Under the pieces are notes generated by a model. That model had not been told where the DNA came from, searched no databases, and was given only the letters and a program-made list of their open reading frames with translations. Source: an uncultured Gemmatimonadota bacterium (GTDB lineage: Bacteria > JAAXHH01). Taken from it: a stretch of DNA of 64,000 bases. A program made the position numbers and the translations under genes. The DNA is taken from NCBI GenBank assembly GCA_951812955.1, contig OX638340.1, forward strand, positions 2,912,001 to 2,976,000, given 5' to 3'. Below are positions 16,614-62,180 of this stretch, piece by piece (position 1 is the stretch's first letter; every line of letters starts with the position of its first letter).

Positions 16614-16844
16614 GGGAATCAAGCCGGATTCAGCGGGTCGTTGGATCAGGGCGAACGGCGGCGGCACAGCAAGCGAAAGATGCTATACGGGTGTTTAGAA
16701 ATCAAGGTATTTTCAAGGTGGACCGTGAATGGCGGAAAAGACGCTTGTTCTATGCCGTTACCGGAGTTAACGTGGTGTCGGCCGGTCCATCAGAATGCGG
16801 CGCGCCGGCCCGCCGCAGCCGATGTCGGAAACGGGACGATCATC

Positions 16845-47987: not shown

Positions 47988-48911
47988 ATGACAGACCTTT
48001 CCCAGCAGACCGAACCCGCGATCGAGGTCCCCCGGATCGTGGACGATGAACAGATCCAGTTCTACGTGGATAACGGGTATCTCGTCGTGCCCGACTTGAT
48101 GACCGGCGACGAACTGCAGGAACTGAAGGACGACCTGGTCGACGTGGCCCGGGGAAAGTATCCCTGCAGGGGGCTTGACCCGCCGGCGCCCGATGACACC
48201 GACGACGACGTGTTGCAGCGCATCCTGTGTATCCACCAGCCCCACTTCGTCAGCCAGGTGATCGAGCAGTACGTGCGCCATCCGAAGATCTGCGGGGTGC
48301 TGAGCCAGATTACCGCGGCCCATCTGCCCTACTGGGACGGGAGCGTAAAGTGCATGCAGTCCATGTACTTCATCAAGCCGCCCCGGTTCCAGGGCCAGGC
48401 CTGGCACCAGGACGAGATCTTCATCCCCACGCGGGACCGGTCCCTGATCGGCGCGTGGATCGCCGTGGACGACGCCACGATCGAGAACGGTTGCCTGTAT
48501 GTCGTGCCCGGTTCACACCGGAACGGTTATCTCTATCCGCAGCGGCAGCACGAGAACCCCGACGAGTTCGACTTTGCGCCCGAGAGCTACGGATTCGACG
48601 AGTCCGTGGAAGTGCCGGTCGAAGTCCGCGCCGGAGCCCTGGTCTTCTTCAACGGCTATCTCCTGCATCGGTCCTACAAGAACCGCAGCGATCAGCCCCG
48701 CCGCGTGCTGGTGAACCACTACTGCAACGCGTGGAGCCTGCTGCCCTGGGGCATCGAAGAGGGCGAGCGTCCCGCCACGGCCGACCGTCGCACGATCGTT
48801 CCGGTTTCCGGCACCGACCCCTACGCCTGGAAGGGCTACGAACCCACGCAGGACACGATCTGGATACGCAACTGCAAGGCGGCGGATGATATGAAGGAGG
48901 AGGCGGAGTAG
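47988..48911 (+). CDS. Phytanoyl-CoA dioxygenase (PhyH) family oxygenase
   Basis: The blocks are FYVDNGYLVVPDL, the HxD motif WHQDEIFI, and a distal His in LLHRSYKN. Confidence 0.8.
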   Translation: MTDLSQQTEPAIEVPRIVDDEQIQFYVDNGYLVVPDLMTGDELQELKDDLVDVARGKYPCRGLDPPAPDDTDDDVLQRILCIHQPHFVSQVIEQYVRHPKICGVLSQITAAHLPYWDGSVKCMQSMYFIKPPRFQGQAWHQDEIFIPTRDRSLIGAWIAVDDATIENGCLYVVPGSHRNGYLYPQRQHENPDEFDFAPESYGFDESVEVPVEVRAGALVFFNGYLLHRSYKNRSDQPRRVLVNHYCNAWSLLPWGIEEGERPATADRRTIVPVSGTDPYAWKGYEPTQDTIWIRNCKAADDMKEEAE

Positions 48912-48995
48912 ACGGGGCCCGGCGAGAGATAGCTATTATCAAACTCGCACCGGGTAACGTCGTCGATTGCGAACCTGTAGACTTTAAGGGCGCCG

Positions 48996-49055
48996 TCGTT
49001 CGGCGTACTTTTGACCAGCGTCCTCTCAACCGGTGTTCTTTCGGCCGGCGTCCTC
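48996..49055 (-). repeat. 30-bp periodic repeat x2 related to the 25076-25165 repeat
   Basis: Read on the minus strand the units are GAGGACGCCGGCCGAAAGAACACCGGTTGA and GAGGACGCTGGTCAAAAGTACGCCGAACGA. The core GAG(C)GGACGC[CT]G-TGaCAAaG is shared with the 25.1-kb repeat. Confidence 0.4.
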
Positions 49056-49170
49056 GTATTCTCCTCTAACCCAGCCTGCGTGTCCATCCTGATCAGCCCG
49101 CAAATCCGTTGACGTAACGGCCTCTTCCCCTTAGCTTCCGCTTTGCTTGTAATACCTAAACGCCTTATCA

Positions 49171-50664
49171 ATGTATCATCCCGTTTCCCGCGGAGCCCCC
49201 GTGAACGTCATCTGCATCTGCCTGGACACCTTTCGCGCCGACATCATCGGCCCGGGCAGGAAGTTCAGCCACGCGCACACGCCCAATCTCGACGCTTTCC
49301 ACGGCGGCAGCATCCGGTTCAACCGAGCGTATGGCGAAGGGCAGCCCACGCTGCAGGTCCGCCGCGCGCTGTTCACCGGGATGCGCAGTTTCCCCTGGCG
49401 TTACAACTTCGACCGGCGCGGACACTGGCATCATGCTCCAGGCTGGCACAAGATTCCCCCGGAGCAGGACACGATCGCCGAGGTGCTGCTGGAACGAGGG
49501 TACCTGACGGCCCTCATCGCCGACACCTATCATATGTTCAAGCCCACCATGAACTTTGCCCGGGGATTCGCGCACCTGGATTTTGTGCGGGGGCAGGAAT
49601 CGGACAACTGGAAAAGCGGTGACCCCCGGCTGGTGGAGGCGCAGCTCGCCCGGCACGTCCGGTCGCCCGTGGACATGGCCCGGCACGTGGGACTTGTGAA
49701 CTACCTGCTCAACCAGCGACACCGGAGGGAAAAGGACGACTACCAGTGCGCCCGGGTATTCAATTCGGCCTGCGAGTGGCTGGCCGACAACCATACGGCG
49801 GGGCCCTTCTTCCTGTGGGTAGACAGCTTCGATCCCCACGAGCCATGGGATCCGCCGCCGGAATATGCGGACCGGTACTGCGAGCATGACGGCCTCGATT
49901 TCATCCAGCCCGGCCCCGCTTACAGTAGAGGCGGGCCAGGCGGGGGCGGCCCGGGCGGACCATCGGAAGCGGAACTCAGGCGCATCGAGGCGCTGTACCT
50001 CGGCGAGGTCACCCTCGTGGACGAGTATGTGGGCCGGTTGCTGAACGCGGCCGCGGACCTGAACCTGCTCGATGAGACCATGGTCGTGATTCTGTCGGAC
50101 CACGGCACACAACTGCTGGACCAGGGGAAGTTCGGCAAGGGGCCTGATGAACTGCATCCCTTCAATACCCAGCTCAACCTCATGATGCGGGTACCTGGCG
50201 GGCCCGCGGACCTCGACGTGGACGCCTTCGTGCAAAACCACGACCTCATGCCCACGCTGCTCGGACGGCTCGGGATGCGGGCGGAGTGGACGGACGGGGA
50301 GGACCTGTGGCCGTTGGTCACGGGCGAAAAGGCATCGGTTCGCGACCGCGTGGTGACCGGATGGGCGGGCTTTGTCACGGGGAACGCCGTGGGCAGGGCC
50401 AGCGTCCGAGACGATCGCTGGAACTACTGCACGGCGGTGGGGTACGAGGACGAGGCTGGCGATGAACTCTTCGACCTGGAGGCTGATCCGGAAGAGCGGC
50501 GAAACGTGGCCGGTCTCCATCCAGAGATCGTCGCGGATCGCCGTACCGACGTGGAGGCCGTGATCGGCCAGCCTCTCCCCGGACAGATGGTGGAGGTGTG
50601 CGATGCGGCCCCCGGGCCCATGTCGCACTGGCTGGGACAGTTGCTGAAGAAGAGACAGGGTTGA
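49171..50664 (+). CDS. Sulfatase-fold (alkaline phosphatase superfamily) hydrolase lacking the Cys/Ser-x-Pro-x-Arg formylglycine motif
   Basis: The N-terminal metal site is ICICLDTFRAD. The position of CxPxR reads GQPTLQVRRALFTG. Later blocks SDHG and PTLL are present. I see no signal peptide. Confidence 0.7.
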   Translation: MYHPVSRGAPVNVICICLDTFRADIIGPGRKFSHAHTPNLDAFHGGSIRFNRAYGEGQPTLQVRRALFTGMRSFPWRYNFDRRGHWHHAPGWHKIPPEQDTIAEVLLERGYLTALIADTYHMFKPTMNFARGFAHLDFVRGQESDNWKSGDPRLVEAQLARHVRSPVDMARHVGLVNYLLNQRHRREKDDYQCARVFNSACEWLADNHTAGPFFLWVDSFDPHEPWDPPPEYADRYCEHDGLDFIQPGPAYSRGGPGGGGPGGPSEAELRRIEALYLGEVTLVDEYVGRLLNAAADLNLLDETMVVILSDHGTQLLDQGKFGKGPDELHPFNTQLNLMMRVPGGPADLDVDAFVQNHDLMPTLLGRLGMRAEWTDGEDLWPLVTGEKASVRDRVVTGWAGFVTGNAVGRASVRDDRWNYCTAVGYEDEAGDELFDLEADPEERRNVAGLHPEIVADRRTDVEAVIGQPLPGQMVEVCDAAPGPMSHWLGQLLKKRQG

Positions 50665-50815
50665 ATCGTGGGTGGGCGGCGTGTAGGCGGCGTGTAAGCC
50701 GATCGCGCCCAACGCCGAAGCCATGCGCGCACCGAACCGCGCATAAACGATGGTCTGAAATAGCGGTCTGAAATAGCCATGAAGAAGAGTATGCAATCCA
50801 AACCTTTTATTGAGT

Positions 50816-50829
50816 TGTACAATTGTACA
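50816..50829. promoter_or_regulatory. Perfect 14-bp palindrome (candidate operator) upstream of an SDR gene
   Basis: TGTACAATTGTACA is its own reverse complement. It lies 36 nt upstream of the ATG at 50865. A perfect 13-bp tandem repeat, GGTCTGAAATAGC x2, sits at 50752-50777. Confidence 0.4.
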
Positions 50830-50864
50830 TCTGATGTGGTCTTCATGCAACAGGAGTATTCAGC

Positions 50865-51647
50865 ATGCGGTTAGCAGGCAGGGCGGCCATCGTGACCGGC
50901 GCGGGGGACGGGATAGGGCGCGGGATCGCGCTGGCGCTTGCCCGGGAAGGCGCTTCGGTGGCGGTGTGCGACGTGAACGCCGACACGGTGACGGAGACCG
51001 GACGGCTGGTCGCCGAGACGGGACGGCCCGTCCTGGCGGAATCTCTGGACATCACCGACCACGGCGGGGTCAGGTCCTTCGTAGAGAGGGCGGCGTCCCG
51101 GATGGGGCGGATCGACATCCTGGTTAATAACGCCGCCATCATGCCCGTGTCCCCCGTCGAAGAGCAGGACGAAGCGGTGATGGCCCGCATCCTCTCCGTC
51201 AACCTGCTGGCCCCCGCCGTCTTCAGCAAGTATTGTATCCCGCACATGCGAGCCGCGGGCGGCGGATCGATCATTCACATGGCGAGTGTCACGGGCCACA
51301 ATGGGCATCCGGGGGTCGCGGTCTACGGGGCGACGAAGGGTGGACTGATCGCGCTGGCCCGGGGACAGGCCATGGAACTCGCCGTGGACAGGATCAGGGT
51401 GAATACAGTCTCTCCCGGCACGGTGGATTCCCCCATGTTGCACAACTTCGTGAATGAGAACGCCGAGGATCCGGAAGCCGCGCTCAGGGCCTTCGATCGG
51501 CTGCACCCCATCGGCCGGATTGCCACCATCGAGGAGGTCGCCAACGTCTTCGTGTTCCTGGCGAGCGACGAATCCAGCGATATCACGGCGGCGGATATCC
51601 GCTGCGACGGCGGCTACGCGGTCCAGGGCCGGCAGCCGACGGAATAA
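50865..51647 (+). CDS. SDR-family oxidoreductase
   Basis: The motifs are TGAGDGIG, NNAA, YGATK and a PG block. Confidence 0.9.
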   Translation: MRLAGRAAIVTGAGDGIGRGIALALAREGASVAVCDVNADTVTETGRLVAETGRPVLAESLDITDHGGVRSFVERAASRMGRIDILVNNAAIMPVSPVEEQDEAVMARILSVNLLAPAVFSKYCIPHMRAAGGGSIIHMASVTGHNGHPGVAVYGATKGGLIALARGQAMELAVDRIRVNTVSPGTVDSPMLHNFVNENAEDPEAALRAFDRLHPIGRIATIEEVANVFVFLASDESSDITAADIRCDGGYAVQGRQPTE

Positions 51648-51720
51648 CGGCAAGGAGAAGATCCGCTCATCTGCGACGGCGGCTACGCGGTCCAGGGCCG
51701 GCAGCCGACGGAATGACGGC
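51597..51720 (+). repeat. 69-bp tandem duplication spanning the SDR stop codon
   Basis: A 44-nt perfect repeat, CTGCGACGGCGGCTACGCGGTCCAGGGCCGGCAGCCGACGGAAT, occurs at 51602-51645 and 51671-51714. The flanking ATCCGCT is also repeated. The offset is 69 nt, i.e. 23 codons, in frame. Confidence 0.85.
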
Positions 51721-51759
51721 TAGATTTCATCGGCCAGGAAACAGCTGCAAGGAGAACAT

Positions 51760-52743
51760 ATGTCAGTAGGAGTTTGCGCCTATTCATTCAATACGGGTCC
51801 CGACGCCTTCGAGCTCATGGACATGGCCGTCGAACACGGACTGGCCGGCGTGGAGTTCCCCCCGGACGACTGCTTGCCCGACCTGGCGCCGGCCACGCTG
51901 GAATCGGCCCGCGCCTGTGCGGAGGAACGCGGACTGTTCGTCGTGGCCGACGGCGGTCAGGTGGAGCGGGAGATGCTGGAGCGTCTCATCCCCGCGGCCT
52001 CCGGCCTCGGCGCGTCGACGTTGCGGGTGGTCATGAGCGGCGTACTCGGCGGGGACCGGCGTCCGCTGGCGGGACGGTGGAATGCCCATCTCGCGGATTG
52101 CAGGGATATTTTGCGCGAAGTCCTGCCGAAGGCGGAAGAGCATGGCGTGACCATCGCGGTGGAAAATCACTCCGACGCCACGTCCCACGACATGGCCTGG
52201 CTGTGCGAGGAATTGGACAGCCCGTACGTCGGCATTACGCTCGACGTGGGCAACGTGCTGGCGGTGTGTGAAGAACCCTTCGGGTACACGGAACGGCTGC
52301 TGCCCCATCTCCGTCATATCCACCTCAAGGACTATACGCTGCATCCTTCCAACGAGGGATTCCGCATAGCGCGATGCCCGCTGGGAGCAGGCGTGGTCGA
52401 CTATCCCGCCCTGCTGTCCCTGATCGACGGTTACCACGGCACGCGGGACCAGGGGGGCGGGATCGCGAAGACCATCGAACTGGGCGCCATATACGCCCGT
52501 CACGTGCGCATGCTCATGGCCGATTACTGGGCGGAGTATCCGGAACGGGACGTTAAAGAACTGTTGCCCTTTCTGCGGTTGTACTGGGCCCATGTTCGAC
52601 CGAAGGAAGAAGACTGGCGAACGCCCAGAGAGAAGGACGAACCGGTCGAGGTGCTGAAGGCATACGAGAATCGGCAATTCGAAGATAGCGTGTCCTATCT
52701 GAAGGAAATCGGGGCCGTCCAATCGAACTCCGTTACAACCTGA
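51760..52743 (+). CDS. Sugar phosphate isomerase/epimerase (xylose-isomerase-like TIM barrel)
   Basis: The family pattern includes AVENH, LDVGN, HIHLKD and a conserved Glu/His/Asp metal-ligand spacing. Confidence 0.75.
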   Translation: MSVGVCAYSFNTGPDAFELMDMAVEHGLAGVEFPPDDCLPDLAPATLESARACAEERGLFVVADGGQVEREMLERLIPAASGLGASTLRVVMSGVLGGDRRPLAGRWNAHLADCRDILREVLPKAEEHGVTIAVENHSDATSHDMAWLCEELDSPYVGITLDVGNVLAVCEEPFGYTERLLPHLRHIHLKDYTLHPSNEGFRIARCPLGAGVVDYPALLSLIDGYHGTRDQGGGIAKTIELGAIYARHVRMLMADYWAEYPERDVKELLPFLRLYWAHVRPKEEDWRTPREKDEPVEVLKAYENRQFEDSVSYLKEIGAVQSNSVTT

Positions 52744-52760
52744 ACAAGGCGGGTCGGCAA

Positions 52761-53855
52761 ATGAGCTTTTCCGTTAATTCCGGTGACCACCTTGAAACGA
52801 AGGCGGTCGAAATGAAGATGGAACGCCTCGACCAGTCCGACATGCATGGTTCCATCGGTTCGATACCCGACCAGGTGGAAGCGGCCTGGGGGGATATGAC
52901 GGGGCGCGTTTTCCCCGACGCCTGCCGCGACGTGGACCACGTCGTGGTAGCCGGGATGGGTGGATCGGCCCTGGGCGCGCATCTGATAATGGACGTATTC
53001 CGCGACAGGCTGTCCGTACCGGTGACCGTGGTTTCAGATTACCAGGCGCCCGCGTGGATCGACGAACGGACACTCATCGTGTTGTCCAGTTATTCCGGGG
53101 GCACGGAGGAGGTGCTGAACATGGCGCAGCAGGGCGCGTCCCGTAACATTCCCATGATCGCGCTGACTACCGGAGGCGAACTGGCGGCGCTCGCCGAAGG
53201 AAATCGCTGGCCGGCCGTAGTGTTCGGCAGCGAACTGAATACGTGCGGGCAGCCTCGGATCGGCCTGGGTTACGCGGTGACGTACCTACTCGGGATTTTC
53301 CGGCAACTGGGCTTCGTAGACCTCGCCGCGACGGAGATTACCCGGGCCATCATGCTGCTACGTGAGACGAATCAGGATTACAGGGAACCGGGAGAGGAAA
53401 ACCCCGCCTTCGAGCTGGCGCGATCGACGCAGGGCAAAACGGTGATGATCATGGCCTCCGAGCATCTCACCGGCAATGCCCACATCATGGCCAACCAGTG
53501 GAACGAGAATGCCAAGAACATGGCGGCGTGGTTCGCCATACCCGAGCTCAACCACCATCTGCTCGAAGGGATGACCTACCCCCGGGAAAACCAAAACGGG
53601 CTCGTCGCCGTGCTGGTCCAGTCCGACCTCTACGATCCGCGCAACCGCCGCCGACACGAGATCACCCGCGCCTTGCTCGAGGAACAGGAGATCGCCTGCC
53701 CGGTCATCAAGCCACGGGGAGATACGGCCCTGGAACAGGCTTTCGACCTGCTCCTGCTCGGCACCTATGCCAGTTTCTACCAGGCGGTCTTAAACGCAAC
53801 CGATCCATCCCCCATTCCCTGGGTCGATCAGTTCAAGCGTCGCATGGCCGGCTAA
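52761..53855 (+). CDS. Bifunctional phosphoglucose/phosphomannose isomerase (SIS-domain, archaeal/bacterial PGI-PMI type)
   Basis: The blocks are VVAGMGGSALG, SSYSGGTEE, GQPRIGLGY and ELNHHLLEG. The real start may be the internal Met at 52812 or 52818. Confidence 0.8.
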   Translation: MSFSVNSGDHLETKAVEMKMERLDQSDMHGSIGSIPDQVEAAWGDMTGRVFPDACRDVDHVVVAGMGGSALGAHLIMDVFRDRLSVPVTVVSDYQAPAWIDERTLIVLSSYSGGTEEVLNMAQQGASRNIPMIALTTGGELAALAEGNRWPAVVFGSELNTCGQPRIGLGYAVTYLLGIFRQLGFVDLAATEITRAIMLLRETNQDYREPGEENPAFELARSTQGKTVMIMASEHLTGNAHIMANQWNENAKNMAAWFAIPELNHHLLEGMTYPRENQNGLVAVLVQSDLYDPRNRRRHEITRALLEEQEIACPVIKPRGDTALEQAFDLLLLGTYASFYQAVLNATDPSPIPWVDQFKRRMAG

Positions 53856-53914
53856 AGGCACCACCCGCCACGATGTAGATCCCTTCCGGGTCACGCATCG
53901 AAAGACGGTACGGC

Positions 53915-56900
53915 ATGAGTGAAATCGTTACATACCTTGGTGGAAAGACGCTGCTGATTACCGGCGCCACGGGATTCCTCGCGAAAGCGGTCGTGGAAAA
54001 GATCCTGCGGTGCGCGCCGGAGGTCGGCCGCGTATACCTTGTCGTCAGGCCCCGCCGCAAGAAGGACGGCACTACGCTGTCGGCGGCGGAGCGCGTGGAG
54101 GATGAAATACTCCAGTCCGCCGCTTTCGCCCGTTTGCGCGAGATGCACGGCGACCGATTCGCACCATTCATGGCGGAGAAGGTTCATGCTGTCGAGGGGG
54201 ATCTGACCCTGGACCACCTGGGATTGGAGCCGGAACTGTACCGGCTTCTTTCCGAAGAGGTCAATGTCGTAATGACCTGTGCCGCTTCCGTTACCTTCGA
54301 CGAAGAAATCGACGCCGCCCTGCAGCTGAACGCTCTGGGCGCCAGGCGGATGATGGAATTCGCCAGAACGTGCAACCGCGCCATACTCGTCCACGTATCC
54401 ACGGCCTATGTCAATGGCCAGCTCAAGGGGCGCATCCCGGAAGTTCCACCACGGCCGGACTGGTCCATGGCCCAGGAAATGGGGATCAGCGACGCGCCAT
54501 TCGACCTGGAAAAGGAAATCCGGGGTATTTTGGCGAGGGCCGAAGAAATCCATGTTGCGTCACGATCGGCTGTCCAGCAGAAACGGTTCCGTAGGTCAGC
54601 CCTTCAACAGAACGCGCGGCCCACGCAGCGCTGGCTTGACGCCCAGATGGAGACCTTCCGTAAACGCTGGCTGAAGGAACAGCTTATCGAAGAAGGGATG
54701 CGCCGGGGACAGCAGTGGGGCTGGCACGACAGCTACACCTTGACGAAGGCCATGGGCGAACAACTGATCGTCAAGCATCGGGGCGAACTGCCCACGGTCA
54801 TCATTCGTCCGTCCATCGTGGAAAGCAGTCTCGTCGAGCCGGAACCGGGATGGATAGAAGGGCTCAAGGTCGCCGACCCGCTGATCGACGCGGTGAGCAA
54901 GGGCCGCCTGCCGGATTTTCCCGGCGATAAGGACATGATCGTGGACATCATCCCGGTGGACATGGTGGTAAACTCCATGCTGGCCGCCATGGAGCACACG
55001 GTCCGGGAGGGCGGAATCAGCGTGTACCACGTGTCTACGGGCGACCGGAATCCAATCCGATTCCAACAGGCCTTCGAACTTTCCTACGAGTACTTCCTGC
55101 AGCATCCACGCCTGAACCGGAACAACGAACCCATACCCATCCGGCGCTGGACCTATCCGACCCTCGCCCAGTTCAGACGGCGGTACAACCTGCGCTACGT
55201 CTATCCACTGAACACCGCGCTCTGGGTGTTCAACCGCTTCAGCCGCATCACCTTCCTGAATAACTGGAAGCGCAGAATAACCGTGCTGAAATCGGCGATC
55301 TCCCGCATGCTCTACTACGCTTCGATCTACAGTCCCTACACGTCCCTGGAATGCACCTTCGAAACCGGTCGGACGGTCGGCCTGCACGAACGGCTCGGGC
55401 CCGATGACCGGCTGCTGTTCAACGGCGACGTATCCAGAATACAATGGAAGACCTACTTCCAGGATATTCATATTCCAGGGTTGAAGCGCCACGTGTTGAA
55501 GACCGACGAACCCAGGCCCACGGTTACAGAAGAGGAGGAGGTTGCGGAGCGGTCGGGGTTTACCCAGGCGGAGGATGACCCCCTGCCCCACCTCGACACG
55601 TTGACGGATATATTGGCCAAGAGCGCGGATATGTACGGAGACAAGACCGCGATGCAGATGGAGCGTGAGGGGGTATGGGTCCGGTATTCTTTCAAGGACG
55701 TGCACGACCTGGCCGGCCACATGGGCTGGCAATGGCGGTCCGGCGGGCTGCACCCGGGCGACCGCGTCCTGCTGTTTTCGGAAAACAAGCCCGAATGGGG
55801 GATCGCCTGTTTTGCGGGTCTGGTGGCCGGAGCGGTGATCGTGCCCGTAGACCGGCGGTCATCGGCGCAGGAAGTGTGGCGCATTGCCCGGTTCACCGGT
55901 TCGAAGGCTGTCCTGTGTTCGGAAAGCGGTTTCGAGATGCTGAAAGCCTCGGAAGCACCGGACCTGGAGGTCGCTTTCTGGAATATCGACAACTACGGCC
56001 TCCCTTTCGATGCCTCGCGGCCGTCGGCGTCGCCGGTCGCCTTGAACGAGGAACCGCCCGCCTGGGCGCCGGTTCAACCCGATGCGCCGGCCGCCATCAT
56101 GTTTACACGGGGCATGGCTGCGGAGTCGCACGGCGTGGTGCTGTCCCATCGGAATTTCGTATCGAACCTGCTGTCTCTTGCCGAGATTCTGCGCGCCTAC
56201 CGGACCGACCATTTCCTCTCTCTGCTGCCCATGAGCCAGGCCCTCGAGTTCACCGGGGGATTCCTCATGCCCTTCTACGCGGGAGCGACCATTACCTATA
56301 CCGCTTCGGTACGTCCTCGATCCCTGGTCGCCCTGATGGTTGAATCCGAAATCAACTGCCTGATCGCGGCGCCCCGGATTTTCGGACTGATGCACCGGCC
56401 GCTGCAGCGTGCGGCCCGTGAATCGGATACGGACGTGGTTTCCCGCATGCGACTGCTGGTCAGCGGCGGCGGTACGCTCGCGTCGGATCTCTACCACGCC
56501 TACCGCGATTTCGGCCTCACCATACACGAGGGATACGGGCTCACGGAAGCGGCGCCGGTCGTGGCCGTGAACCCCATGGACCGAAGCAAACCGTCCTCCG
56601 TCGGCATCGCCCTTCCGGAGGTCGACGTGCGTATCGCAAATCCCGATGAGGATGGGAAGGGAGAAATCGTCGTGCGCGGGTCGAACGTCATGCTGGGATA
56701 TTTCGAGAACCCGTCGGCGACGGAGCATCGCATCCGCGACGGCTGGCTTCACACGGGGGACATCGGTTACATCGACCGGGACGGCTACTTGTACATCGCC
56801 GACCGCATGGAGCGCAGCCGCGGATCGAAGGATGTACCGGATGGTCGTCCGGGGAACGGCAAGTCCCGCAGCGCCACCGCCTTCTTCGACGTGGACGGAA

Positions 56901-57535
56901 CCATCGTCGACGCCACGATCGTACACTACTACGCCTTTTACAGGACCTGGGGTTATTCCGTTCCGAAGCGTCTGCTTTGGACCCTGGGCTTTCTGCCGAA
57001 GGTCGTCTATTACATGGTGCTGGACAAAATCAGCAGAAGCCGTTTCAACCAGGTCTTCTACAGGCAATACCGGGGATTCGAGCGCGGCGAGTGCGTATCC
57101 CGCAGCGAACGCCTCTTCAACGAAGTCATGCGGCCGCGCATGTTCACCGGCGCCGTCGAACGCATTCGGGAGCATCAGCAAAGAGGCGAGCGCGTGGTCC
57201 TGGTCACCGGATCCCTCGATTTTATCGTGGAACCCCTCGCGGAGTACACCAAGGCCGACGATCTCATCGCCCTGTCCATGAAGGAGGAGAACGGCCGGCT
57301 GACGGGAGAGCCGGAAGGGCCGCCGATCGGCGACGAGGAGAAGGCCCGTATCGTCCGGGATTACGCCGAACGGCGCGGCATCGACCTGGACCGAAGTTAC
57401 GCCTATGCCGACAGCAGATCGGACCGGCCCATGCTGGACCTGGTGGGACACGCCGTCGTGGTGAACCCGGGCGGGAAACTCAGAAAGGCTGCGGAAGCCG
57501 GCGGCTGGGAAGTCGTTAGCTGGACCCACGTATGA
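53915..57535 (+). CDS. Three-domain fusion: fatty acyl-CoA reductase (NAD_binding_4 + sterile domain), truncated adenylate-forming (ANL) domain, HAD-IB phosphatase
   Basis: The reductase part has LITGATGFLAK, YTLTKAMGE (YxxxK), and a C-terminal sterile-domain pattern ending ...WKTYFQDIHIPGLKRHVL. The ANL part (about 55590-56820) has GYGLTEA, GEIVVRGSNVMLGYF and WLHTGDIGYIDRDGYLYIADR. Its P-loop reads MFTRGMAAESHG and nothing follows the hinge. The HAD part (about 56875-57532) has FFDVDGT, VTGS and YADSRSD. Confidence 0.85.
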   Translation: MSEIVTYLGGKTLLITGATGFLAKAVVEKILRCAPEVGRVYLVVRPRRKKDGTTLSAAERVEDEILQSAAFARLREMHGDRFAPFMAEKVHAVEGDLTLDHLGLEPELYRLLSEEVNVVMTCAASVTFDEEIDAALQLNALGARRMMEFARTCNRAILVHVSTAYVNGQLKGRIPEVPPRPDWSMAQEMGISDAPFDLEKEIRGILARAEEIHVASRSAVQQKRFRRSALQQNARPTQRWLDAQMETFRKRWLKEQLIEEGMRRGQQWGWHDSYTLTKAMGEQLIVKHRGELPTVIIRPSIVESSLVEPEPGWIEGLKVADPLIDAVSKGRLPDFPGDKDMIVDIIPVDMVVNSMLAAMEHTVREGGISVYHVSTGDRNPIRFQQAFELSYEYFLQHPRLNRNNEPIPIRRWTYPTLAQFRRRYNLRYVYPLNTALWVFNRFSRITFLNNWKRRITVLKSAISRMLYYASIYSPYTSLECTFETGRTVGLHERLGPDDRLLFNGDVSRIQWKTYFQDIHIPGLKRHVLKTDEPRPTVTEEEEVAERSGFTQAEDDPLPHLDTLTDILAKSADMYGDKTAMQMEREGVWVRYSFKDVHDLAGHMGWQWRSGGLHPGDRVLLFSENKPEWGIACFAGLVAGAVIVPVDRRSSAQEVWRIARFTGSKAVLCSESGFEMLKASEAPDLEVAFWNIDNYGLPFDASRPSASPVALNEEPPAWAPVQPDAPAAIMFTRGMAAESHGVVLSHRNFVSNLLSLAEILRAYRTDHFLSLLPMSQALEFTGGFLMPFYAGATITYTASVRPRSLVALMVESEINCLIAAPRIFGLMHRPLQRAARESDTDVVSRMRLLVSGGGTLASDLYHAYRDFGLTIHEGYGLTEAAPVVAVNPMDRSKPSSVGIALPEVDVRIANPDEDGKGEIVVRGSNVMLGYFENPSATEHRIRDGWLHTGDIGYIDRDGYLYIADRMERSRGSKDVPDGRPGNGKSRSATAFFDVDGTIVDATIVHYYAFYRTWGYSVPKRLLWTLGFLPKVVYYMVLDKISRSRFNQVFYRQYRGFERGECVSRSERLFNEVMRPRMFTGAVERIREHQQRGERVVLVTGSLDFIVEPLAEYTKADDLIALSMKEENGRLTGEPEGPPIGDEEKARIVRDYAERRGIDLDRSYAYADSRSDRPMLDLVGHAVVVNPGGKLRKAAEAGGWEVVSWTHV

Positions 57536-58767
57536 AAGCGGTTCAATACATCAAAAGCGTACCCAGGTACCTGTTCGTACGGACGATCGGCCATCGCAGC
57601 CCCGTTTTGGCGACCGGCGCCCTGTCGTGCATACGCATGGTAGACGTCGATCCCCCGGTGCTTCCGACTCCGGCATGGGTGCGCATCAGACCGCGCTTGA
57701 CCGGCATATGCGGATCAGACCTCTCCACCATCAAGGCCGGCGGAAGCCCTTACTTTTCCCCCCTGATATCCTCGCCTTTTGTCCTTGGACACGAAGTGGT
57801 GGGCGAGGTCCTGGAGACCGGTCCCGAATCAGGGGGCGTGTCCCGGGGGGACCGCGTGGCCATCGAACCCGGTCTGTGCTGCCCTGTTCGGGGCATCGAC
57901 CCGCCGTGCCCGTCGTGCCGGGAGGGAGATTTCGGCCTGTGTGAGATGGTTATGCACGGCGATATTTCCCCTGGCATTCAGACGGGGTATTGCAGGGACA
58001 CGGGCGGCGGATGGAGCACATCCCTGGTCGCACACCCCTTCCAGGTCCATCCGGTGCCCGAGCGGCTGACCGATGAGGAAGCGGTCCTGATAGAACCATT
58101 CAGCTGTTGCCTGCACGCCGTGATGAAATCCTTTCCCTCCGATGATGAGACGGTGCTCGTAATCGGGTGCGGTGCGATCGGGTTGCTTACTATCGCATCC
58201 ATACGGGCCCTGGGAGCCAAATGCCGGATTCTCGCCGCCGCCCGTTATGGCCATCAGGAGACCCTGGCGGCTGAACTGGGCGCCGACCGGGTCATCGGCC
58301 GGGGCGACGGCCTATACGAAAGCTTGAGCGAGGTGACCGGGGCGGAAATCCATCGTCCGGAGATCGGGCGGCCCGTATTCATCGGCGGCGCAAACCGGAC
58401 CTTCGATTGTGTCGGTTCCTCCCGCTCCATCGACGACGCCCTTCGACTGACCGGATCCGGTGGATGCGTCACCGTCGTAGGCATGCCGGGTATACCTTCC
58501 GGCATCGACTGGACAGCCGTCTGGTACAAGGAATTGAAAGTCCAGGGCGCGTATGCGTACGGGACGGAAAAATATGAAAACCGATCCGTGCGGACCTTCG
58601 ACCTTGCCATGCGGTTGCTGGAGGAGGGCAAGGTCGATCTGAAACCCCTGTTAACGGACCTTTATCCTCTGAAGGACTACCGGAAGGCGATCGGCCGGGC
58701 GCTGAAAGCCGGAAGCCAGGGCGCGGTCAAGGTGGCCTTCGACCTGCGAGACGAACCGGCGCGGTAG
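57532..58767 (+). CDS. Zinc-dependent medium-chain alcohol dehydrogenase
   Basis: The blocks are GICGSDLS, GHEVVGEV, the structural-Zn cysteines CCPVRGIDPPCPSC, and the Rossmann motif VIGCGAIG. The start overlaps the upstream stop (ATGA). Confidence 0.85.
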   Translation: MKAVQYIKSVPRYLFVRTIGHRSPVLATGALSCIRMVDVDPPVLPTPAWVRIRPRLTGICGSDLSTIKAGGSPYFSPLISSPFVLGHEVVGEVLETGPESGGVSRGDRVAIEPGLCCPVRGIDPPCPSCREGDFGLCEMVMHGDISPGIQTGYCRDTGGGWSTSLVAHPFQVHPVPERLTDEEAVLIEPFSCCLHAVMKSFPSDDETVLVIGCGAIGLLTIASIRALGAKCRILAAARYGHQETLAAELGADRVIGRGDGLYESLSEVTGAEIHRPEIGRPVFIGGANRTFDCVGSSRSIDDALRLTGSGGCVTVVGMPGIPSGIDWTAVWYKELKVQGAYAYGTEKYENRSVRTFDLAMRLLEEGKVDLKPLLTDLYPLKDYRKAIGRALKAGSQGAVKVAFDLRDEPAR

Positions 58768-58805
58768 CCCGGATTCATTGAGAAAACGCAAAACGGAGTT
58801 CCCCC

Positions 58806-60491
58806 GTGCCCTACCTGAAGATTCTGCGCGCGGAAGTTCCGCAAGTGCATGTCCTCTCAAAGGATGTCACTACCCTGGGCCGTTCCGGGGAAGTCGATAT
58901 GCCCATCAGAGGGGACCGCGGTGTCTCCAAACTCCACGCGCGGATCGAAAGCGAGGCTGCGGGCTACGTGATCACGGACCTGGGCAGCCGGAACGGTACG
59001 TATGTCAACGATCATCCGGTCGCCGGGGAACCCGCCCCGCTGCTTTCAGGCGATCATATCAGGGTCGGACAGACTGTCCTGGTATTTGAAGGGGGAGAAC
59101 CGGATGGGACGCATTCCGCGGGCACGGGAACCGCGGATGCGGAGGCCGTGGCGAGTAAGGACGATCCGCAGGCGCCGGCGTCGCTGTTCCGGGCGGATCA
59201 ACTGCCCTATACGCAGGCTGGCCGCCCGCCCGTCCGTCAGCGTGCAGGCGCGGACAACCACCTGCTGAAGCTGACGGATCTGAGCAAGGCCGTCATGACG
59301 GTGCGCAGCGAAGCGGAACTGGGAGATCTCGTTACCCGGCGCCTGCTCGAGTGGCTGGAGGCCGACTGCTGTGCGATCGTCCATCCCCTGGACACCGAGG
59401 ATGGTTACGACCTCGAGATAAGGTCGCTGGTATCCCGTACCGGAAGAGAAGCCGGCGGCATCTCAATCAGCACCACCGCGGTGAAACAGGCCCTGGAAAA
59501 CCGGATGGCCTCCATCACCACGAATGCCCTGGGGGATGAACGGTTCAGGGACCAGCACAGCGTCATCCTCCGCGGGCTGGCGTCCATTCTGTGCGTACCC
59601 CTGTGGCATGAAGACCGGGTATTCGGTCTGCTGTACCTCGATTCATCGGATCCCGCCGCGCAGTTTACCGTGGATCACCTCGGTCTCGTCAGCGCGGCCG
59701 CCAACCTGGCCGCCATCAAGACCGACAACCTGCGCCTGTTCGACGCGGCCGTCGCCAAGAGCGCGCTGGACAAGGAACTGGCCCTGGCCGGGGAGATTCA
59801 GGCGGGCCTGCTGCCCGGAGAGCGCTACGTGTTCCAACGTCTTGCCTGCGCGGGAAAGCTCCAGTCCTGCGCGGCGATCGGTGGCGACTACTACGATTTT
59901 ATTCCTATTGGCGAGAACGTCCTGACGGTGACGATCGCCGACGTTACCGGACACGGTCCCTCCAGCGCGATGCTCATGGTCGCCTGCAAGACCATGCTGA
60001 CCACCCTCATAGAGATCCGGGTTCCCCTGACGGAACGGGTGACGCGGTTGAATGAATACATGGTCCACCACGCTGCATCCAACCAGTTCATTACTTTCTT
60101 CCACGCCGAAATCGACCTGGAGCACCGGTCGCTGAACTATTGCAACGCCGGCCACAATCCCCCCATGCTCCTGCCGCCCGGCGACGCGCCGCCTGCGAGA
60201 CTGCATTCCGCAGGCCCGCCGTTGGGGATCGTTTCCTGTCCCTTTGACCTGGAGACCGTGGATTTTCCGCCAGGGTCCAGGCTGGTCATGTACACGGACG
60301 GAATCACCGAGGCCTCAGACCCGGAAGGGGTGCTTTACGAGGAAGACCGGCTGGAATCGCTGCTGACAAGGTGTCGCCGGCAGGACGCGGACGCGTTGAA
60401 AAACAGCATCCTGGCGGAACTTCTGGAATTCACCGCGGGACGGGAACAGGATGACGACGTTACCCTGGCCGTAGTGGAATACACCACCTAG
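58806..60491 (+). CDS. FHA - GAF - PP2C/SpoIIE-family protein phosphatase
   Basis: The FHA part has TLGRSGEVDMPI...VSKLHARI...DLGSRNGTYVN. A GAF-like middle region contains GLLYLDS. The PP2C part has GGDYYDF, DVTGHG and YTDGITE. The start codon is GTG. Confidence 0.85.
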   Translation: MPYLKILRAEVPQVHVLSKDVTTLGRSGEVDMPIRGDRGVSKLHARIESEAAGYVITDLGSRNGTYVNDHPVAGEPAPLLSGDHIRVGQTVLVFEGGEPDGTHSAGTGTADAEAVASKDDPQAPASLFRADQLPYTQAGRPPVRQRAGADNHLLKLTDLSKAVMTVRSEAELGDLVTRRLLEWLEADCCAIVHPLDTEDGYDLEIRSLVSRTGREAGGISISTTAVKQALENRMASITTNALGDERFRDQHSVILRGLASILCVPLWHEDRVFGLLYLDSSDPAAQFTVDHLGLVSAAANLAAIKTDNLRLFDAAVAKSALDKELALAGEIQAGLLPGERYVFQRLACAGKLQSCAAIGGDYYDFIPIGENVLTVTIADVTGHGPSSAMLMVACKTMLTTLIEIRVPLTERVTRLNEYMVHHAASNQFITFFHAEIDLEHRSLNYCNAGHNPPMLLPPGDAPPARLHSAGPPLGIVSCPFDLETVDFPPGSRLVMYTDGITEASDPEGVLYEEDRLESLLTRCRRQDADALKNSILAELLEFTAGREQDDDVTLAVVEYTT

Positions 60492-60589
60492 CCAGACCTC
60501 CGGGTGAACGCCGCCCGCGGCGTGACCCGCGGTTCCGACCCGCATGTCCTCCGCCCGCCTCAGAACAGTCGCCCGGCCAAGGCGCCAGT

Positions 60590-61642
60590 CTATATCCAAC
60601 CGTGATCGATGCTTACCGGCGTGCCGGACTGCTGATGCGTCCACTGTCCCCCGCTGGCCAGCGGTACCTCCCGGCCGGAAATGGACGACTGTTCGGCGGC
60701 GAACAGGATCTCCATGACGTGACGGCCCCATTCACCGGGCGTGGGCGGTTCGATGTCCTTGCGGATGGACTCGACAAACCCCTTCCACTCGTTGTACATG
60801 GGATGGGGCGGGTCGTCGAAGGGCACGTCCTCCCACTTGTTGTCCTTGCCGACCCTGACGTACTTCTCGCCCGATTCGCTGAAGCGCAGCGAGCCGTTCG
60901 CGCAGATCACCTGGCATTCGTGGTTGGGCCCGCCGTCGGCGTAACCCACGGCCACCGCCACGCCCGCCGTGCCGTTCTTGTACCGGATGAAGGCCGTGGA
61001 GGAGTCGTCCGCGGCCTGGTAGTGCGCCCGGTTGCCAATGGAGGCGGAGACCGATATTGCCTGGGAAGCCATGACCCAGGAGAGGCGGTCCACCACGTGG
61101 ACGCCGTTGGTCATCCACATGCCGCCGCCGTGGAACCTGCTGCGGTACTGGGGCCTGCGGCCGCCGTGCCCCCACTGCTTGGACATGTAGCATACTGCCG
61201 TGATAGCAGGGCCAAGCGCTCCGGAGTCCAGGATTTCCTTCGCCTTGACGCTGGTGCCGTAGAAATGCTGCGTCAGGCCCACCATGAGCTTGACGCGATT
61301 GGCCGCGGCTGCGGCGATCATGTCGTCGCACTGGTCCAGGCTGATTGCCATGGGTTTCTCCACCAGGACGTGCTTGCCGGCGTTGCAGGCGTCCACGGTA
61401 AGGCGGTGGTGAAGCTGGTGGCCAAGGACGATGGCCACGGCTTCGACCTCGTCGTCCGCCAACAGCTCCGTGTGGGTTTCGTAACCCCTGGGGATATCGT
61501 ACTTTTCCATGTATTCACGTCGCTTTTCTTCGAGCAGGTCCGCGACCGCGACGATCTCCACGCCAACCTGGTTGGTGATGGCCTCGCAGTGCGGACGGGC
61601 GATGCCGCCCAGGCCGATTATACCGACGCGCAGATTAGACAC
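60590..61642 (-). CDS. Gfo/Idh/MocA-family oxidoreductase
   Basis: The blocks are LRVGIIGLGGIARPH and the EKP motif VLVEKPM. Confidence 0.85.
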   Translation of the reverse strand: MSNLRVGIIGLGGIARPHCEAITNQVGVEIVAVADLLEEKRREYMEKYDIPRGYETHTELLADDEVEAVAIVLGHQLHHRLTVDACNAGKHVLVEKPMAISLDQCDDMIAAAAANRVKLMVGLTQHFYGTSVKAKEILDSGALGPAITAVCYMSKQWGHGGRRPQYRSRFHGGGMWMTNGVHVVDRLSWVMASQAISVSASIGNRAHYQAADDSSTAFIRYKNGTAGVAVAVGYADGGPNHECQVICANGSLRFSESGEKYVRVGKDNKWEDVPFDDPPHPMYNEWKGFVESIRKDIEPPTPGEWGRHVMEILFAAEQSSISGREVPLASGGQWTHQQSGTPVSIDHGWI

Positions 61643-62180
61643 AGGTAACGCTCCTTTGATGGGTGCATGGAAGTGGGCTGGCGGGGGTGGTTCAGATCAC
61701 GCCACCGCCGCGATCATATTCTGCTATCAGCTTCCTTCGGAATCTGTACGCTACTATCTGAATATAAAAGACGGCAGATCTTCTGCAGGCAATGGATTTA
61801 ACAACGCGAAACTTCAACATACCATCGCCCATCAGCATCGCCTTATACCGGTCACAGGTTGTTTCAGTCCGGATTATCGGCCTGAGTTCAAATATTCTGT
61901 ATAGATGAAGGTCATGTCATTATATTAGCGATCGTCTGTCAGCGCAGACATCATCTGCGCTGTAGTAAAGTGATCAGTAATACACCCCCGCCAAGAATTT
62001 CTCGTAGCGTGCATTTTATTCCACATATCATCAATTACGCCCGCGATCCCAGGTCTGTGTTCAAAGCCTTGCCGGGTTCAGTCGCAATGGCGTTTGCAAC
62101 AATAGAGCTTGTTAAGTAAGAAGCACCTGTTTTTCTGGTTGGATAACACGTGGATCTATGGAACAGAATGGAATCTCAGG

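Follow-up and report, generated by a model that had tools for sequence, protein, structure and literature searches.

Within a 64,000-nucleotide stretch of DNA from an uncultured Gemmatimonadota bacterium (contig OX638340.1 of assembly GCA_951812955.1, positions 2,912,001 to 2,976,000; hereafter the window), an uninterrupted open reading frame (ORF) with an ATG start runs on the forward strand from 53915 to 57535 and encodes a protein of 1206 amino acids (aa). Four parts can be distinguished in this product: a reductase of the type called FAR (for fatty acyl-CoA reductase) with its Sterile domain, the N-terminal subdomain alone of an ANL (acyl-CoA synthetase-like) enzyme, a disordered linker and a HAD-IB phosphatase. 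The following gene, for a zinc-dependent alcohol dehydrogenase-like protein (Zn-ADH), starts at the ATG of GTATGA and overlaps the fusion gene by ATGA at 57532-57535. A first-pass annotation of this DNA had described a three-part ORF of this length with an overlapping Zn-ADH, and the reading frame, the Pfam matches and all the motifs it quoted, each at its given place, bear that description out. Here we present the ORF as a truncated relative of the ether-lipid protein ElbD that was fused to its neighbouring phosphatase gene. The features of the locus are listed below.

53915..57535, forward strand: whole fused ORF, assigned as a truncated ElbD orthologue plus an ElbB-type HAD (ORF, translation, Pfam, identity to the relative L110)
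53957..54979, forward strand: FAR Rossmann domain NAD_binding_4, aa 15-355 (Pfam, E=9.5e-67)
53960-53986, 54395-54412 and 54734-54748, forward strand: FAR motifs TGATGFLAK (aa 16-24), VSTAYV and YTLTK (aa 274-278), respectively
55280..55501, forward strand: C-terminal Sterile domain of the FAR, aa 456-529 (Pfam PF03015, 44.9 bits against a cutoff of 35.4; aligned to 7eoz)
55526..55609, forward strand: acidic linker between FAR and ANL domains (TEEEEVAERSGF...LPHLDTLTD), the boundary where relatives are cut
55607..56806, forward strand: relic of the ANL N-terminal subdomain, aa 565-964, catalytically degenerate (Pfam AMP-binding, AlphaFold2, Foldseek)
56102..56134, forward strand: degenerate A3 phosphate-binding loop (P-loop) FTRGMAAESHG, aa 730-740 (alignment to 8wev and the ElbD family)
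56225..56251, forward strand: A4 motif LPMSQALEF, in which Gln stands in place of the family-invariant His (alignment)
56531..56551, forward strand: A5 motif GYGLTEA, aa 873-879, kept
56750..56761, forward strand: A7 motif HTGD, aa 946-949, kept
56807..56878, forward strand: deletion/fusion junction and linker, aa 965-988 (DRMERSRGSKDVPDGRPGNGKSRSAT), hypervariable and of low predicted confidence (AlphaFold2 pLDDT <50 at aa 967-984)
56876..57532, forward strand: HAD-IB phosphatase domain (ElbB-type), aa 988-1206 (Pfam PF12710, TIGR01490)
57532..58767, forward strand: zinc-dependent medium-chain dehydrogenase/reductase (MDR) of polyol-dehydrogenase type, 411 aa (Pfam ADH_N and ADH_zinc_N)
58806..60491, forward strand: FHA-GAF-PP2C(SpoIIE) phosphatase (Pfam), a conserved neighbour only within Latescibacterota

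A Pfam scan of the 1206-aa protein placed the AMP-binding domain, which models the N-subdomain, at aa 568-930 (E=3e-62) and the phosphatase domain PF12710 at aa 989-1174 (E=1e-39); the same scan gave no match to AMP-binding_C, PP-binding (PF00550) or acyltransferase PF01553. No sequence homologous to acyl carrier protein (ACP) and no PF01553 acyltransferase was found anywhere in the 64-kb window. Many NCBIfam acyl-CoA ligase models matched the central part, all far under their cutoffs and ending near model position ~400 of ~500, and the hinge sequence YIADRMER lies at aa 960-967. The C-terminus belongs to the NCBIfam HAD-IB family TIGR01490 (145 bits against a cutoff of 98.3), with the motifs FFDVDGT at aa 990-996, LVTGS at aa 1096-1100 and YADSRSD at aa 1164-1170. 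In NCBI records the orthologues are annotated just as "HAD-IB family hydrolase". A promoter and terminator scan of 50600-61800 returned sites no more frequently than it did in shuffled sequence.

The FAR, AMP-binding and HAD composition recurs in 22 protein clusters of 1191-1246 aa and 76-98% identity (the fusion clade), and the same gene occupies a fully syntenic locus in 15 species-representative metagenome-assembled genomes (MAGs), which are labelled Latescibacterota, with some records given as Gemmatimonadetes, and several of which derive from sponge or coral bins. Complete chromosomes with the gene include OY762445.1, OZ241838.1 and OY843748.1. Estimates of the ratio of nonsynonymous to synonymous substitution rates (dN/dS; Nei-Gojobori method, nine pairs) were 0.09-0.20 for the FAR, 0.10-0.30 for the middle/Sterile region, 0.12-0.19 for the ANL part and 0.04-0.19 for the HAD domain; purifying selection acts on all domains. 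The first-pass annotation had allowed that a frameshift or sequencing error might account for the missing ANL subdomain. More broadly, the architecture could be an artefact of frameshift or mis-assembly, or a decaying pseudogene, and two orthologous copies (in L013 and L015) do carry premature stops, the first falling after 701 and 275 codons respectively with homology running on to the end, while one related contig (L020) looks chimeric. Against this, the ORF is uninterrupted in 13 of the 15 copies, which represent independent species-level genomes, the 22 clusters come from differing assemblers and sources, and selection at the codon level is evident in every domain (dN/dS 0.04-0.30). We consider the artefact reading effectively refuted already, and its remaining probability negligible. 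The interrupted copies of L013 and L015, whose genes start at locus position 10001, look like pseudogenes or frameshift errors of long-read assemblies.

Beyond the fusion clade, the next ~95 homologues measure 1350-1575 aa, are 79% to 39% identical to the query across its first ~80%, and carry the Pfam domains NAD_binding_4, Sterile, AMP-binding, AMP-binding_C, PP-binding and PF01553 acyltransferase. We assign the protein to the ElbD family because 93 full-length relatives, each combining FAR, AMP-binding, PP-binding and acyltransferase domains, share the ElbD domain architecture. In Myxococcus xanthus, ElbD is composed of an N-terminal FAR1-like reductase, an acyl-CoA synthetase (ACS), an ACP and an AGPAT-like acyltransferase, in that order, and ElbB of the same elb operon is a HAD-like phosphohydrolase (PMC9131029; PMC13012113). 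A need for elbD in the formation of alkyl and vinyl ether lipids is established for M. xanthus only; the ligase and ACP activities of ElbD alone have been demonstrated there, and the mechanism of ether-bond formation is unsolved (PMC9131029). Surveys of sponge symbionts have described clusters consisting of just elbD plus elbB and have recorded hits to elbD among Latescibacterota (bioRxiv 10.64898/2026.06.23.733905); in published surveys, many Latescibacterota MAGs have elbD hits and most have AGPS homologues (PMC11868695; bioRxiv 10.64898/2026.06.23.733905).

The closest full-length relative, L110 (protein cluster P0024), encodes in succession an ElbD of 1429 aa, a HAD protein of 234 aa that overlaps the elbD stop, a 130-aa insert, a Zn-ADH of 410 aa, an FHA-GAF-SpoIIE protein and an FGGY kinase. 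Identity between the window and L110 amounts to 68% for residues 1-964 of the window ORF against ElbD residues 1-969, 64% for the C-terminal part of the ORF against the free-standing HAD gene, 74% for the ADH proteins and 59% for the FHA-GAF-PP2C proteins. A second relative, L111 (P0032; an NCBI Latescibacteria MAG), presents a short-chain dehydrogenase/reductase (SDR), a TIM barrel protein, phosphoglucose isomerase (PGI), an ElbD of 1460 aa and a HAD protein, its upstream genes being common to the window. Since the L110 genes match one to one and L111 is syntenic, we read the window ORF as an elbD from which residues ~970-1429 (A8-A10, ACP and AGPAT; ~460 aa) have been deleted and whose remainder has been joined in frame to the next gene, and, on the same comparisons, as the orthologue of ElbD in sponge- and coral-associated Latescibacterota. 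The 130-aa insert of L110 (6385-6777, between HAD and Zn-ADH) is a bAvd / 23S_rRNA_IVP-family gene that is missing from the window. Upstream of the fusion gene, window positions 47988-53855 hold genes for a PhyH dioxygenase, a sulfatase, an SDR, a sugar-phosphate TIM barrel protein and a bifunctional PGI/phosphomannose isomerase (PMI); the SDR-to-PGI block is syntenic with elbD across Latescibacterota, including L111, with its full-length ElbD, L025 and L028.

With ElbD of M. xanthus (MXAN_1528, UniProt Q1DC43), compared here by description, the window protein has in common an N-terminal FAR (NAD_binding_4 and Sterile) and, after it, an ANL domain, arranged alike in both, as well as an associated HAD (ElbB) gene, the orthology being traced via the full-length Latescibacterota ElbDs found at the same locus. 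It differs from ElbD of M. xanthus in being without the ANL C-subdomain, ACP and AGPAT, in its mutated P-loop and A4 His and in its fusion to HAD; furthermore, the gene on its 3' side encodes a Zn-ADH, whereas that position in M. xanthus is taken by the epimerase-family protein ElbE. The first-pass annotation had held that in ether-lipid enzymes the ligase precedes the reductase and that the order here is reversed, which is wrong for ElbD, whose order is FAR-ACS-ACP-AGPAT (PMC9131029; Pfam order). Because a FAR preceding the ligase is the norm of the ElbD family, the FAR-first order is inherited and not new. Nor does the "new arrangement" that it proposed hold as a de novo three-part invention: the protein is better described as an elbD orthologue with an internal deletion, joined to the elbB-type HAD gene beside it.

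Two other kinds of fused reductase invite comparison. In FARAT proteins (FAR-GNPAT fusions; MXAN_1675, Tetrahymena, Discoba) a FAR is likewise fused to a downstream ether-lipid enzyme (PMC13012113), but the partner is an acyltransferase, whereas in the window protein a phosphatase takes its place and a dead ANL half lies between. Carboxylic acid reductases (CAR; A-PCP-R) likewise combine an ANL domain with a thioester reductase; however, they have the opposite domain order, require a carrier domain and possess an active adenylation domain. The window protein has its reductase at the N-terminus, no carrier and an incomplete adenylation domain, and it is not related to CAR by descent.

The route to the present gene can be traced through intermediate states. 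An internal deletion from the ANL hinge onward set a truncated elbD directly before the ElbB-type HAD-IB gene of the operon, and loss of the intervening stop codon then fused the two. A split state of this kind is present in L025 (P0029), where the FAR-ANL N-subdomain protein of 998 aa stops 14 residues past the hinge (...YITGRVRDMIGTDG*) and its TAG codon is in frame with the HAD ORF, which begins two codons later (...*DRMVSEKPSSTDIAAFFDVDGT); thus a single stop-codon change turns the split form into the fused one. The P0029 protein already has the P-loop Thr-to-Met and the A4 His-to-Gln replacements of the fusion clade. Among fusion-clade orthologues the junction varies extremely both in how long it is and in its residues, and it contains LDR repeats; in the AlphaFold2 (AF2) model the linker at aa 967-984 has a per-residue confidence (pLDDT) below 50 between two confidently folded domains. 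Two assemblies contain a further form, P0028, composed of FAR and ANL(N+C) without ACP or acyltransferase (AT).

Reduction has also gone further. In P0027 (locus L026), a 798-aa FAR-HAD protein, the whole ANL relic is deleted in frame; the HAD domain joins just past LPHKTALTD, at the FAR/ANL linker boundary, and the ADH gene follows with an ATGA-type overlap. In L030, FAR (561 aa), HAD and ADH are three separate genes with 75%, 65% and 70% identity, and the standalone FAR ends in the same acidic linker TEEEEVAERSGF (...TEEEEVAERSGFAQTDTDSTTSH*). Single FAR-HAD ORFs with a downstream ADH gene are found in distant lineages too, in L055/L057 (754 aa; FAR 38% identical) and L076 (777 aa), and on their sequences we interpret these as independent FAR-HAD fusions.

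One candidate for an ancestral full-length state, P0023 of contig L020, was rejected. As far as aa ~887 it falls inside the fusion clade, beyond that point it groups with P0034, and its downstream genes are those of L109, an unrelated cluster of 70% G+C (GC); these affinities mark it most probably as an assembly chimera or a recombinant between lineages. The breakpoint in L020 lies near locus nucleotide 12660, exactly at the conserved GYGLTEAAPV, the window-type side having 91.6% nucleotide identity to L004 and the other side consisting of the C-terminal half and downstream genes of a canonical elb cluster of the L109 type. L109 itself, found via the C-terminal half of P0023, was examined as a second elbD of the same genomes and rejected: at 70% GC, it resembles the window in tetranucleotide content no more closely than unrelated phyla do, in a comparison of tetranucleotide and GC content that does not discriminate among GC-rich contigs, and it probably belongs to another organism. 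It is a canonical Myxococcus-like cluster, in which the gene at the ElbC position between HAD and elbD (L109 6180-7778) encodes a Lar_N (PF09861, LarA-like N-terminal) domain, ElbC having been described with function unknown. A HAD-elbD gap of similar size occurs in the Myxococcus-order loci L073, L075, L078, L086, L091, L094, L098 and L100.

The ANL part of the window protein has departed from its full-length relatives in both sequence and extent. When the protein is aligned by HMMER to 8wev, a feruloyl-CoA synthetase of solved structure, FTRGMAAESHG stands opposite YTSGSTGRPKG and PMSQA opposite PLFHA, and homology ends with ...YIADRME opposite ...HVVDRLK, that is, at the hinge. Two claims of the first-pass annotation are thereby upheld: the degenerate P-loop truly aligns with the canonical P-loop of 8wev, and the C-terminal ANL subdomain with its catalytic Lys is missing, homology ending at the hinge with no AMP-binding_C match. 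From aa ~964 the chain passes into linker and HAD, and neither the C-subdomain nor the A8 hinge nor the A10 Lys is there. The P-loop of full-length ElbDs, typically FT.GT.V[DE][PA][KR]G, is already non-canonical, but almost all of those scanned retain both the Thr and the basic residue; in the fusion clade that Thr has become Met (T734M) and the basic residue His. FTRGMAAESHG is identical in 20 of the 22 clusters, the remaining P0021 and P0022 differing at one or two positions each, and P0022 is eroded further (P-loop FPRGMASESHG, A5 GYGLAEA). The A4 replacement H775Q is found in the fusion clade and in P0029. Taking as conserved those positions that are at least 95% conserved in the 93 full-length ElbDs, the fusion clade has replaced nine of 72 in the ANL N-subdomain, T734M and H775Q included, against one of 63 in the FAR and two of 20 in the middle/Sterile region. 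The outgroup distance of the fusion-clade ANL part exceeds that of its full-length sister by 0.057 substitutions per site, the corresponding difference for the FAR being -0.005.

In ANL enzymes, the A10 Lys and rotation of the C-subdomain are needed for the two half-reactions. Since A8-A10 are wholly missing, this enzymology makes adenylation and thioester formation by the relic very unlikely on sequence grounds. Nevertheless, the relic is not decaying at present (dN/dS ~0.15) and keeps the ANL N-domain fold, with an AF2 pLDDT of ~90 and Foldseek TM-scores of 0.86-0.87 to FadD13 reduced to its N-domain; the overall AF2 predicted template modelling score (pTM) of 0.68 gives no confident packing of the ANL N-subdomain against the HAD domain, and these predictions confirm folds, the survival of an ATP pocket being outside what they can tell. 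The A5 GYGLTEA and A7 TGD motifs are retained in nearly all members of the fusion clade. Our default reading is accordingly that the relic would be a folded, selected, non-catalytic structural spacer between two active domains.

Alternatively, the relic may have been exapted, as a pseudo-adenylation domain with a changed function, to bind a fatty acyl chain, acyl-AMP or AMP, and so to act as a substrate-delivery, membrane-docking or regulatory domain for the FAR, the HAD or both. Such a role would fit dN/dS values of 0.12-0.19 over ~400 aa, only slightly above those of FAR and HAD, the retention of A5 and A7, the near-invariance of the degenerate P-loop itself across the clade and the confidently predicted fold. 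We nonetheless judge it unlikely: the relic is deleted in frame in P0027 and lacking in L030, L055/L057 and L076, yet FAR, HAD and ADH persist in every case, and in P0022 both A5 and P-loop have eroded further. For the first-pass proposal of a non-catalytic acyl-binding or scaffold domain, it follows that the crippled motifs and the selection are compatible with a structural role, and that the relic-less P0027 and L030 argue that the domain is dispensable for the core function.

A second alternative is that the ANL part is still an active ligase with a non-canonical P-loop, served in trans by a missing C-subdomain-ACP-AGPAT half, as in a split ElbD. Split elbD genes do occur in Poribacteria and Acidobacteria (bioRxiv 10.64898/2026.06.23.733905), the clusters P0121-P0123 are proteins of partial ANL, ANL_C, ACP and AT, and an unusual P-loop is a property of the whole ElbD family. 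However, the natural splits fall between the FAR and the adenylation domain and not within the latter (bioRxiv 10.64898/2026.06.23.733905), and P0121 is one half of a frameshifted complete elbD on a 70% GC contig unlike this genome. Furthermore, the Thr and the basic residue that nearly all scanned full-length members keep are both lost, as is the A4 His, and the 64-kb window contains no ANL_C-ACP-AT gene. Taken together, these observations make a split but active ligase highly improbable, and we retain the spacer as the default for the relic.

By comparison, the catalytic equipment of the other domains is well preserved. The FAR module matches the solved plant fatty acyl-CoA reductase 7eoz with E=1.9e-89 over both FAR halves, and 62 of 63 family-invariant positions are retained. 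It has the NAD(P)-binding and Ser/Tyr/Lys motifs of the alcohol-forming reductases of plants and animals (7eoz); unlike these, it sits within a multidomain bacterial protein. Motifs I-IV of the HAD domain (FFDVDGT, LVTGS, EEKAR and YADSRSD) are intact and are all invariant in an alignment with HADs adjacent to elbD. To the standalone HADs directly 3' of full-length elbD, the domain is 49% (L018, a Phycisphaerae MAG), 46% (L022) and 64% (L110) identical, and to those of HAD genes upstream of elbD in clusters of the Myxococcus order it is 38-44% identical. ElbB, of which the M. xanthus protein was compared by description, and the elbD-adjacent HADs are separate proteins, whereas here the HAD is a domain of the ElbD-derived polypeptide. 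Its nearest solved structures are 3fvv (uncharacterised) and SerB, and we know of no characterised member of this ElbB-type subfamily.

The Zn-ADH possesses the catalytic Cys/His/Glu, four structural Cys and GCGAIG (with GICGSD, LGHEVVG, IEPFSC and a Cys-rich loop at aa 116-137). Its nearest relatives are the dehydrogenases of threonine, xylitol and sorbitol, along with a ketose reductase that uses NADP(H). It reaches the cutoff of no NCBIfam equivalog, L-threonine 3-dehydrogenase, idonate 5-dehydrogenase and IolM being among the models (best scores 128 against 380, 117 against 469 and 108 against 450). Residues 233-238 of the Zn-ADH, ILAAAR, lie at the end of the first NAD-binding strand, include no acidic residue and align with VVCTAR of 1e3j, the same ketose reductase, a weak hint that the Zn-ADH may use NADPH. 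Its sequence is 51% identical to the ADH of L018, which lies downstream of elbD and HAD as in L110. The coupling of this gene to the fusion gene that the first-pass annotation proposed is in keeping with the ATGA overlap and with the recurrence of the HAD-ADH order beside elbD in other phyla; the protein itself is an MDR of polyol-dehydrogenase type and not demonstrably a fatty alcohol dehydrogenase.

A scan of metagenome contigs anchored on the HAD gene yielded 80 loci, and in 49 of them ElbD-derived sequence adjoins the HAD. These 49 fall into four classes. In 33, the AT end of a full elbD lies directly 5' of HAD, with a Zn-ADH gene directly 3' in 21 of the 27 that could be assessed, often followed by a diacylglycerol (DAG)-kinase-like gene; 11 show the Myxococcus order (HAD, one gene, elbD), none of them with ADH; four, including the single-ORF fusions of L055/L057 and L076, have a FAR directly 5' of HAD without any ANL; and one is of the window type. 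This recurrence in HAD-anchored loci identifies elbD, HAD and Zn-ADH, in this order, as a widespread operon type, and the FAR/HAD/ADH trio survives reduction while ligase, carrier and acyltransferase can be lost. In other phyla the module adjoins genes for PlsC-like acyltransferases, DAG-kinase-like proteins and CDP-alcohol phosphatidyltransferases. The FHA-GAF-PP2C gene, syntenic in L001-L017, L027 and L110, is missing beside the module in other phyla; it is a conserved neighbour and not an established pathway member.

On these grounds, we think it probable that the window protein is a truncated ElbD orthologue fused to HAD, in which a dead ANL half serves as spacer and the working unit is FAR, HAD and Zn-ADH. 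The comparisons above establish the domain identities, the orthology, the history of deletion and fusion, the loss of motifs, the selection and the gene linkage; the substrates, cofactor and pathway role set out here are what we infer. The FAR would reduce an acyl thioester (acyl-CoA or acyl-ACP, in trans) to a fatty aldehyde or alcohol, the thioester being drawn from the cellular pool since ligase, ACP and acyltransferase are gone. The ADH, probably NADPH-dependent, would complete aldehyde reduction or reduce a keto intermediate such as alkyl-dihydroxyacetone phosphate, and the HAD would remove phosphate from a lipid intermediate derived from glycerol phosphate. Acylation and ether-bond formation (by AGPS, for example) would be supplied elsewhere in the genome. 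Because the FAR-HAD fusion is repeated, the two enzymes may well act in one pathway, possibly on consecutive intermediates. The role in fatty aldehyde, fatty alcohol or phospholipid-intermediate metabolism suggested in the first-pass annotation is thus a reasonable one by analogy and given the FAR/HAD/ADH linkage, except for the fatty alcohol specificity ascribed to the ADH.

Several points weigh against this reading as a whole. The supply of acylation and ether-bond enzymes in trans is assumed; the biochemistry of the fusion protein, of ElbB and of the ADH is deduced from sequence; and even for M. xanthus ElbD, just the ligase and ACP activities have been demonstrated (PMC9131029). P0023 pairs the degenerate P-loop with a full C-terminal half and, if real, would mean that the odd P-loop can coexist with a complete enzyme. 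Finally, strong purifying selection on the relic means that the relic has a role, for which the spacer is only the default.

The unit of FAR-HAD and ADH might also be no ether-lipid device at all, making instead free fatty alcohols, wax-ester precursors or another reduced lipid, or else acting on a phosphorylated polyol unrelated to lipids. The acyltransferase and ACP of the ElbD scheme are gone, the neighbouring genes are of carbohydrate type (PGI/PMI, sugar-phosphate TIM barrel and SDR, plus sulfatase), the ADH most resembles the dehydrogenases of threonine, xylitol and sorbitol, and no ether lipids were produced by a cultured Pontiella that has elbD (PMC11868695). Conversely, the module is orthologous to elbD-elbB, lipid genes adjoin it in other phyla, and bacterial-type alkyl glycerol ethers are present in sponges where these symbionts abound (bioRxiv 10.64898/2026.06.23.733905). 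We regard a role outside ether lipids as doubtful. A bolder proposal is that FAR, ElbB-type HAD and polyol-type Zn-ADH together constitute the true catalytic core of a bacterial pathway making alkyl glycerol ethers without AGPS, with the dead half an exapted lipid-binding or docking domain bridging the two enzymes. A possibly channelled intermediate shared by FAR and HAD would then explain the at least three independent fusions, and the deletion series would define the minimal ether-lipid machinery that the work on M. xanthus ElbD has left open. We offer this idea as speculation, with a rather low probability.

In the searchable literature we found neither a FAR-ANL(N)-HAD nor a FAR-HAD protein described, nor the elbD-HAD-Zn-ADH operon type; a prior functional account of the architecture, which the first-pass annotation had named as a ground for rejecting its finding, thus did not turn up there. 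What is known is the ElbD family and the FAR-acyltransferase fusions (FARAT), and the window architecture is a variant of elbD. The loci described here amount to a natural dissection series, running from full ElbD/HAD/ADH through truncated ElbD/HAD and FAR-deadANL-HAD/ADH to FAR-HAD/ADH and FAR/HAD/ADH, and this series yields concrete, testable candidates for the core of the pathway. It also counsels caution, for among the "elbD hits" in MAGs of sponge-symbiont and marine Latescibacterota are versions that appear unable to activate or load fatty acids, and published work infers ether-lipid producers from such hits. The relic provides a clean case of a seemingly catalytically dead half-domain held under purifying selection after deletion and fusion.

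Elsewhere in the window, an ORF of 1918 aa on the reverse strand (10911-16667) contains two sets of UvrA interaction/DNA-binding domains and ABC ATPase modules and looks like a tandem double UvrA-like protein. Another on the reverse strand (28797-35240; 2147 aa) combines seven Cache repeats (sCache_2/dCache_2), Big_2 and an autotransporter beta-domain, an unusual passenger of ligand-sensing modules. On the forward strand, 97-1548 encodes a fusion of a nucleotidyltransferase with a CDP-alcohol phosphatidyltransferase (IPCT/DIPPS-like), and the gene for another CDP-alcohol phosphatidyltransferase lies 2.4 kb downstream (3941-5284). Both may act in head-group or inositol-phosphate chemistry; they lie 50 kb from the elb-derived locus.

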